Below are positions 4,186-4,465 of a stretch of DNA of 42,570 nucleotides, piece by piece (position 1 is the first letter of the stretch; every line of letters begins with the position of its first letter). The notes below the pieces were generated by a model, which did no database searches, was not told the DNA's origin, and saw only the letters and a program-made list of their open reading frames with translations. Source of the DNA: a virus (taxonomy: Duplodnaviria > Heunggongvirae > Uroviricota > Caudoviricetes); IMG/VR virus record IMGVR_UViG_2687453563_000006, positions 1-42,570 of that record, one strand, 5' to 3'. Made by a program: the position numbers and the translations under genes.

Positions 4186-4231
4186 TGGTGCCGATAATAG
4201 GAGTCGAACCTACGACCTTCGCATTACGAAT
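4186..4231 (-). other. thrW: 46 bp 3'-terminal fragment of tRNA-Thr (thrW type) = prophage att core (distal junction)
   Basis: Reverse complement reads ATTCGTAATGCGAAGGTCGTAGGTTCGACTCCTATTATCGGCACCA (anticodon-arm 3' half, T-arm, acceptor, CCA); the match ends where the D-arm should begin. Confidence 0.8.
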
Positions 4232-4465
4232 CTGTAGCACCAATCATAACTATCTGTTTTAGCAAGCATTAACCGCATTCACTAAGCTATAGTTGATGGC
4301 ACAAACAGAAAGTTGATGCATGATGTTGTCATGCGTATGTCACAAATACGGCACAACAATCTTCAAATATGTAGACACACATCCACAGGAGAGCACAAAG
4401 CCTTGCAATACAGTGCAAAGCCTTGTGTGTCTCAGTTTTGTCCTGTGTGCCAGATATTGAATGGC

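Follow-up and report, generated by a model that had tools for sequence, protein, structure and literature searches.

A probable relic of a thrW attachment site inside an SfV-like prophage at the dusA locus

The 42,570-bp stretch of viral DNA analysed here (the window) contained a 46-nt copy of the 3' end of the thrW tRNA gene, adjoined by one arm of a phage attachment site. We consider it highly probable that core and arm together represent a fossil, non-functional attR-like half-site, which came from a tandem array at thrW and is carried as a passenger by an SfV-like prophage integrated at dusA. The carrier would be an SfV-like lambdoid phage with a Mu-like tail, extending from an integrase located to the left of position 1 to approximately 41.09 kb. 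Its integration and excision should take place at the dusA core (the ATGCTCGA region), with a dusA-type integrase and a PrtN-like excisionase. Because neither a cognate integrase nor a partner site accompanies the relic in this prophage, it would not be used for integration or excision. From left to right, the slot holding the relic was organized as dinI'::IS1, the GT-A and HAD cassette, a terminator, a satellite arm of 9-11 bp, the core, the HK75/SfX-type arm and Tfa (Table 1).

Table 1. Location of the features discussed in the text, in window coordinates.
Feature	Position	Strand	Basis or remark
Spacer found after the dusA-type integrase of relatives, plus the initial 35 nt of a DinI-like gene that starts at 62	1..96	+	tblastn with DinI; identity to relatives
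IS1, 768 bp, cutting the DinI-like gene	97..864	-	Terminal inverted repeats; IS1 annotated in relatives
GT-A/GT2 glycosyltransferase, 281 aa	1031..1876	+	Pfam and NCBIfam
HAD-domain protein, 652 aa, related to ribofuranosyltransferases	1863..3821	+	Pfam and NCBIfam; PDB sequence matches
3' tail of the cassette, including an intrinsic terminator	3822..4176	+	Hairpin and U9 at about 4064-4099
Putative P4-like satellite arm remnant, 11 bp (aaactaggtga), CCA side of the core	4175..4185	.	Only 4177-4185 foreign to the cargo module
thrW core, 46 nt	4186..4231	-	thrW positions 31-76; core shared by thrW-type (P22/SfV/SfX/HK75) att sites
Tfa-proximal (P) arm of an HK75/SfX-type thrW attP, ~225 bp	4232..4455	.	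93-97% identity to phage attP regions
Two CAAAGCCTTG copies	4396..4425	+	Part of a ~46-bp block conserved across arm types; candidate arm-type protein-binding element
Tfa (tail fibre assembly), last late gene of the SfV-like prophage	4466..5068	-	Pfam Caudo_TAP, E = 3.9e-32; collinearity with MEI148-20EC from 4450
PrtN-family (excisionase-like) gene	39681..39989	+	Pfam PyocinActivator, E = 4e-23; same position in relatives
Right-hand prophage junction with displaced native dusA 5' fragment (41087-41191)	41085..41191	-	Crossover in ATGCTCGA (41085-41092)
DUF2713 gene, chromosomal, outside the prophage	41554..42570	-	Pfam DUF2713, E = 1e-163

The thrW core and its phage arm

The plus strand of the core read TGGTGCCGATAATAGGAGTCGAACCTACGACCTTCGCATTACGAAT, which, when reverse-complemented, is exactly the 3'-terminal 46 nt of thrW, the gene for the E. 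coli tRNA-Thr(CGU). The identity was 46/46, and the pattern scan found no second copy in the window even when up to three mismatches were allowed. The pattern never appeared in 100 shuffles, and a chance match, of which zero were expected, was ruled out as the source of the core. The intact 76-nt tRNA-Thr(CGT) gene of E. coli strain I3 contained the same 46 nt as its positions 31-76, with the anticodon at position 34. The core began at the last base of the 5' strand of the anticodon stem and comprised the entire anticodon loop, the variable loop, the T-arm, the 3' acceptor strand and the CCA. A previous interpretation of this DNA (the sequence-only reading) had correctly recognized a 46-bp thrW 3' core, and had placed its end where the D-arm begins; the identity really ends at the last base of the anticodon-stem 5' strand. 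That reading was also right that no intact tRNA is present: ARAGORN, and Rfam at its gathering threshold, detected no tRNA in the window. A permissive Rfam scan of the window gave only a sub-threshold tRNA match (15.7 bits against a cut-off of 29), and the possibility that the 46 nt constitute a tRNA gene was rejected on the basis of these searches.

The cores in the attP of HK75, mEp213, SfX and SfV were identical to that of the window, and the attP of SfI, SfIV and SfV has been described as 46 bp long (PMC3851460). The segment 4185-4455 of the window shared 93-97% identity with the attP of phages mEp213, mEp043, HK75, HK446, HK542, mEpX2, ECP1 and SfX, in regions labelled in GenBank as a prophage attachment site similar to thrW/ptwF. 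Core and arm are members of the well-known P22/Sf/HK75 family of thrW att sites. In HK75, mEp213 and SfX the order, in the orientation of the window, was xis and int (both rightward), 14 bp, the core, the arm of approximately 225 bp, and a tail gene pointing leftward, which in mEp213 is Tfa. The 14-bp distance between the end of int and the core was found in SfV as well; this phage possesses the same core followed by a different arm, then gtrA-gtrB-gtrV and then Tfa.

To the left of the core, the window showed no homology to any of these thrW-type attPs. What it retains of an HK75/SfX-type attP is the core and the arm distal to int (P). Because the P arm and the core are present and the int-proximal arm is absent, the site has the anatomy of an attR (P-O-B'). 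The description of a true thrW-type att core with phage DNA on the tRNA-5' side, put forward in the sequence-only reading, was confirmed in this respect. At the far end of the arm, positions 4453-4504 (the last ~40 nt of Tfa and 13 nt of the arm) matched mEp213 at 98% in inverted orientation (L007 4263-4314). An arrangement of this kind is reminiscent of invertible tail-fibre regions with their converging Tfa ends.

The arm contained exactly two copies of the direct repeat CAAAGCCTTG, at 4396-4405 and 4416-4425, 20 bp apart, and no other exact copy was found in the 42.6-kb window. The repeat-bearing block (4397-4442) recurred with 85-87% conservation in the SfV-type arm, which diverges elsewhere and has the block at another distance from the core, and this conservation across arm types suggests that the block is a candidate binding site. 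The repeat had been noticed previously and regarded as a candidate arm-type Int site. Its two exact copies are there, but no convincing copies were seen on the int-proximal arms of HK75, mEp213, SfX and SfV, and the role in Int binding is hypothetical, with the conservation across arm types as its sole support.

Satellite remnant and cargo cassette on the CCA side

The 11 bp on the CCA side of the core were found in strain elppa4 in identical form, together with the core and the arm, and abutting a P4-like integrase. In this strain a P22-like prophage and a P4-like satellite lie in tandem at thrW, and the 11 bp belong to the integrase-side arm of the satellite. Nine core-less loci from Klebsiella and E. 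coli carried the cassette, and their homology to the window stopped exactly at position 4176. Because the homology of the cargo ends there and the 11 bp match the tandem junction of elppa4, the relic would consist of the phage P arm, the core and 9-11 bp of satellite arm, fused to the tail of the cassette. The join between cassette tail and satellite arm showed a microhomology of 2-3 bp, AA(A). The 9 bp to the left of the core had also been considered as a remnant of the stop region of HK75 int; the resemblance was weak and was superseded by the exact 11-bp match. Tandem lysogeny of SfI and SfX at thrW has been demonstrated experimentally (PMC3306764).

The cassette had a GC content of 29-37%, compared to 53-62% in the tail genes. 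In the 652-aa protein the HAD domain was N-terminal, and most of the length of the protein aligned with Bcs3, the capsule polymerase of H. influenzae type b, and with the 648-aa ribofuranosyl transferase 7shg (E = 1e-13 to 1e-16 for these PDB matches). Both cassette proteins had identical copies in Klebsiella pneumoniae. The K. pneumoniae copies adjoin Tfa of prophages with a Mu-like tail. The cassette is probably a moron for the modification of a surface glycan, perhaps with ribofuranose, lodged in the serotype-conversion slot, and it is reasonable to suppose that it adds ribofuranose to a surface polysaccharide. An assignment of the cargo to Klebsiella wbbY/wbbZ was rejected: that divergent gene pair encodes a WbbY of more than 722 aa and, as WbbZ, a pyruvyltransferase of 329 aa (PMC4237132, PMC10629545). 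The terminator of the cassette was missed by a consensus terminator scan and was found by folding, with a hairpin of -20.8 kcal/mol (z = -2.9).

In strains I3 and GDSC2239PM the same slot was occupied by gtrABX. The arrangement gtrA-gtrB-gtr(type) beside an att site was not found in the window, where the cargo was the GT-A and HAD/ribofuranosyltransferase-like pair. The sequence-only reading had remarked on the lack of a gtr cassette, which holds for the interval between Tfa and the core, but it missed the glycan-modifying pair on the other side of the core. In a Klebsiella-type locus (L015 8093-8400), the same cassette was located beside a P4-like satellite integrase and a putative tRNA-Arg(UCU)-like 3' half. 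This locus suggests an analogous tandem array at another tRNA.

Prophage ends at the dusA locus

A tblastn search with residues 1-35 of DusA gave a match at 41191-41087 on the minus strand, in which the native N-terminus MHGNSEMQKINQTSAMPEKTDVHWSGRFSVAPML was followed by an abrupt break. The junction, with the join falling between ...CCAATGCTCGA and TAGGATGTACC..., was identical to the int-distal junction (attR) of the complete dusA prophage of strain MEI148-20EC. The other junction of that prophage (attL) has a diverged, phage-supplied dusA 5' end, and the crossover region in common is ATGCTCGA; no further copy of this dusA core repeat was found in the window. At the position of the dusA 5' fragment, the PGAP annotation of relatives shows a partial tRNA-dihydrouridine synthase. 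Replacement of the dusA 5' end by dusA integrases has been described (PMC4482086). The right end of the prophage is situated inside the window, at the dusA junction at approximately 41085-41092. Beyond the DUF2713 gene the relatives carry zur, yjbJ, dinF and lexA, and no integrase and no tRNA-Thr were found in them to the right of the dusA junction. The core had been taken in the sequence-only reading for the distal prophage junction, with the integrase and thrW expected beyond the right edge. Both statements are contradicted by the dusA junction and by the gene content of the relatives. The absence of an integrase or tRNA-Thr to the right had itself been named as evidence against that reading, and this is the situation as far as the relatives show.

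Collinearity with the dusA prophage of MEI148-20EC extended from 4450 to 42570 of the window, where the alignments covered 29.9 kb and were 94-99.7% identical, and the tail and early genes of SfV were 97-98% identical to the window. The PGAP order in MEI148-20EC, with arrowheads for orientation and slashes for boundaries, is pspG < dusA < / int > DinI-like > / cargo / < Tfa < Mu-like tail < HK97-like head < terminase < lysis < Q ... cI ... exonuclease > PrtN > / dusA' / DUF2713 / zur. Between the PrtN-like gene and the dusA junction, a 178-aa ORF (40407-40943) had no Pfam or NCBIfam match. Since the same slot in a related dusA prophage contains a Panacea-domain gene pair (L033 45598-46646), this interval may be viewed as a second variable cargo slot. 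Three tandem 30-bp repeats with 80% identity were visible in the 5' part of the DUF2713 gene (42411-42500).

At the left end, positions 1-97 shared 100% identity with GF66.2 as well as with UPEC 26-1, and 93.8% with strain 01G17CRGN001 (L029). The match starts, in all three, one base past the stop codon of a dusA-type integrase, which abuts dusA and pspG, and the gene order at the integrase end of MEI148-20EC is the same. Since positions 1-97 are the post-integrase spacer in these four relatives, a dusA-type integrase and an intact dusA should be located just beyond the left edge, and the thrW core would be internal to the prophage, in a variable cargo slot delimited by DinI and Tfa. Within the window, a tblastn search with six integrases (dusA-type, HK75, SfV, strain I3, yecE-type and P4-like) revealed no integrase homologue, in agreement with the sequence-only reading. 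The sole significant match linked the N-terminus of the yecE-type query (L023) to positions 19954-20109, within a phage structural gene, and is read here as an artefact of a deletion fusion in that yecE-type ORF.

Two LexA-box-like sites, CTGT-N8-ACAG, were observed at 3-18 and 31-46, upstream of the truncated DinI-like gene. The sequences flanking IS1 (agaaaaaat and cccacattt) showed no 9-bp target-site duplication. This points to an IS1-mediated rearrangement, or to an exchange between two IS1 copies that imported the cargo block. Because the duplication is missing, DNA may have been rearranged at IS1, and the left 96 bp and the cassette might not have been neighbours ancestrally.

Related junctions, competing explanations and proposed history

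The junction of cassette tail, core and arm was present in 7 of 5,426 complete E. coli genomes, and in all seven it was internal, or at any rate away from thrW. Four of them carried it at the yecD-yecE locus. The yecE prophage of WCHEC050613, which enclosed the junction, had a 21-bp repeat of its own, gcccgccactttaactgcgtg, at its boundaries and a partial integrase beside yecE; the other three genomes were assigned to this locus from their coordinates and cassette. Two further genomes had the junction in a prophage next to dacD. The last one was strain I3, where it occurred in a thrW prophage whose integrase and int-side arm are of the SfV type, and whose cognate junction, on the outer side of gtrABX, consists of another core with an SfV-type arm; the chromosome downstream of thrW is yagP/pao in this strain. 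Three cores can be distinguished in this prophage, namely the intact thrW, the internal relic and the outer SfV-type attR. The gtrABX genes between the two distal cores (L003 4893-4938 and 8208-8253) were disrupted by ISKpn26. 

The dusA and relic configuration was not seen exactly as in the window among the complete E. coli genomes of the collection, and dusA would be a fourth integration locus for prophages with this passenger block. An exact-pattern scan for the core with a 16-bp flank at the junction gave no hit in GTDB species-representative genomes and none in IMG/VR, and no genome was found in which an intact thrW is directly followed by the CCA-side flank of the window. In two draft relatives, one at the dacD locus (L022 1047-1092) and one on a 2.2-kb contig (L028 1702-1747), the relic core had a 1-bp deletion, GGTGCGATAA compared to GGTGCCGATAA. 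Such a loss would fit an absence of selection on the relic core.

It is scarcely credible that the core is a live attR, belonging to a prophage at thrW with its integrase and an intact thrW past the right edge. The core is indeed the thrW 3' end and the arm is homologous to thrW-type attPs, the tRNA-5' side being occupied by this phage arm and the CCA side by DNA unrelated to attP, and the same core and arm are found at true thrW arrays in ET650, elppa4 and I3. However, the prophage ends in the window at the dusA junction and is followed by DUF2713 (then zur-yjbJ-dinF-lexA in relatives), so that its other end lacks an intact thrW and a cognate integrase. The CCA-side flank is made of the satellite arm, the cassette, IS1 and a DinI-like gene that neighbours the dusA integrase in relatives, and not of yagP/pao, the chromosome downstream of thrW. 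No thrW-type int or xis was found in the window, and a complete thrW-type attP is not present either, as the CCA side has no second arm and no int-xis. A chromosomal rearrangement between a thrW-resident and a dusA-resident prophage would make the core a genuine junction with its partner elsewhere in the genome. SfV-like prophages at different loci have tail genes that are more than 96% identical and could recombine, and an IS1 without target duplication indicates some rearrangement at the left end. This explanation is nevertheless very unlikely: thrW-locus chromosome is seen on neither flank, both ends belong to the dusA locus (the int-DinI spacer and the dusA' junction), and an identical relic junction exists inside yecE prophages with intact flanking att repeats.

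It is also conceivable that the relic works as a secondary att site, which the thrW-type integrase of a co-resident or superinfecting phage or satellite recombines with thrW or with another core, driving cargo exchange or the insertion of a phage into the prophage. The intact core, an arm 93-97% identical to functional attPs, the conservation of the repeat-bearing block across arm types, and the gtr cassette bracketed by two cores in strain I3 would all agree with such a use. We give it little chance, as only 9-11 bp remain in place of the int-proximal arm, no cognate Int or Xis is encoded in the window, the mosaic breakpoints fall outside the core (at 4176/4177, and at 3978 for an IS insertion), the core is decaying in two relatives, and the junction is rare (7/5,426 genomes). 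Some residual activity is possible if a thrW-type integrase is supplied in trans, given the intact core and the well-conserved arm. In a broader form, the relic may be the trace of, and may even keep open, a route of cargo capture that connects composite junctions of thrW phages and satellites, cassettes shared with Klebsiella phages, and prophages with other integrases (at dusA, yecE and near dacD), the core serving as a secondary site; we regard this as unlikely.

For the non-functional passenger, which we favour, we propose the following history, the order of steps being the most likely reconstruction. A phage with an HK75/SfX-type attP and a thrW-specific P4-like satellite would have integrated in tandem at thrW, creating a junction made of the arm, the core and the satellite arm. 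An illegitimate join at the 2-3 bp AA(A) microhomology, 9-11 bp from the core, would then have fused this junction to the tail of the glycan cassette. The resulting block would finally have spread among SfV-like prophages equipped with other integrases, by homologous recombination in the tail genes and with the participation of IS1. The lack of a target duplication around IS1 suggests that the block entered the dusA prophage by an exchange in which IS1 served as one crossover region and homologous tail genes as the other.

With the thrW phages (P22/SfV, SfX, SfI, SfII, SfIV/HK75, mEp213, HK446 and HK542), whose sites, thrW and ptwF in K-12, are also called "CP4-6 type", the relic shares the core, the orientation of the arm relative to the tail genes and the repeat block. 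Unlike in these phages, the int-proximal arm and int-xis are replaced by 9-11 bp of satellite arm and the cassette, no chromosome junction coincides with the site, and the carrier uses a dusA integration module. Specialised transducing phages such as lambda bio have a hybrid attR-type site (P-O-B') beside captured non-phage DNA, and, by this textbook comparison, the phage of the window is similar in carrying an attR-type hybrid site beside captured non-phage DNA. In contrast to lambda bio, there is no sign of capture by aberrant excision, and the cassette itself is phage-borne in Klebsiella. The carrier resembles the elements with dusA integrases (the DAI family; Farrugia et al. 2015, PMC4482086) by the displaced native dusA 5' fragment (residues 1-35) at its int-distal end, and is collinear with E. 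coli prophages whose int adjoins a dusA that received its 5' end from the element. This likeness concerns the carrier prophage and not the thrW relic, and the integrase end lies outside the window. Tandem arrays at a single tRNA, such as SfI and SfX at thrW (PMC3306764) or phages with P4-like islands, provide the closest setting, as the relic has the structure of the internal junction of an array like that of elppa4; it differs in that the satellite is gone except for 9-11 bp and that the junction has moved off thrW.

A tRNA-derived att core beside phage genes is insufficient to call a prophage boundary or an integration site. In the present case, taking the core as the boundary would misplace it by approximately 4 kb and designate the wrong integrase, the wrong target gene and the wrong side of the window. 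The prophage offers a clean example of the swapping of integration modules in SfV-like phages, within ordinary phage mosaicism, and a surface-glycan cassette common to Klebsiella and E. coli phages occupies the classic serotype-conversion slot. Neither the module swapping nor the sharing of the cassette would surprise phage genomicists.
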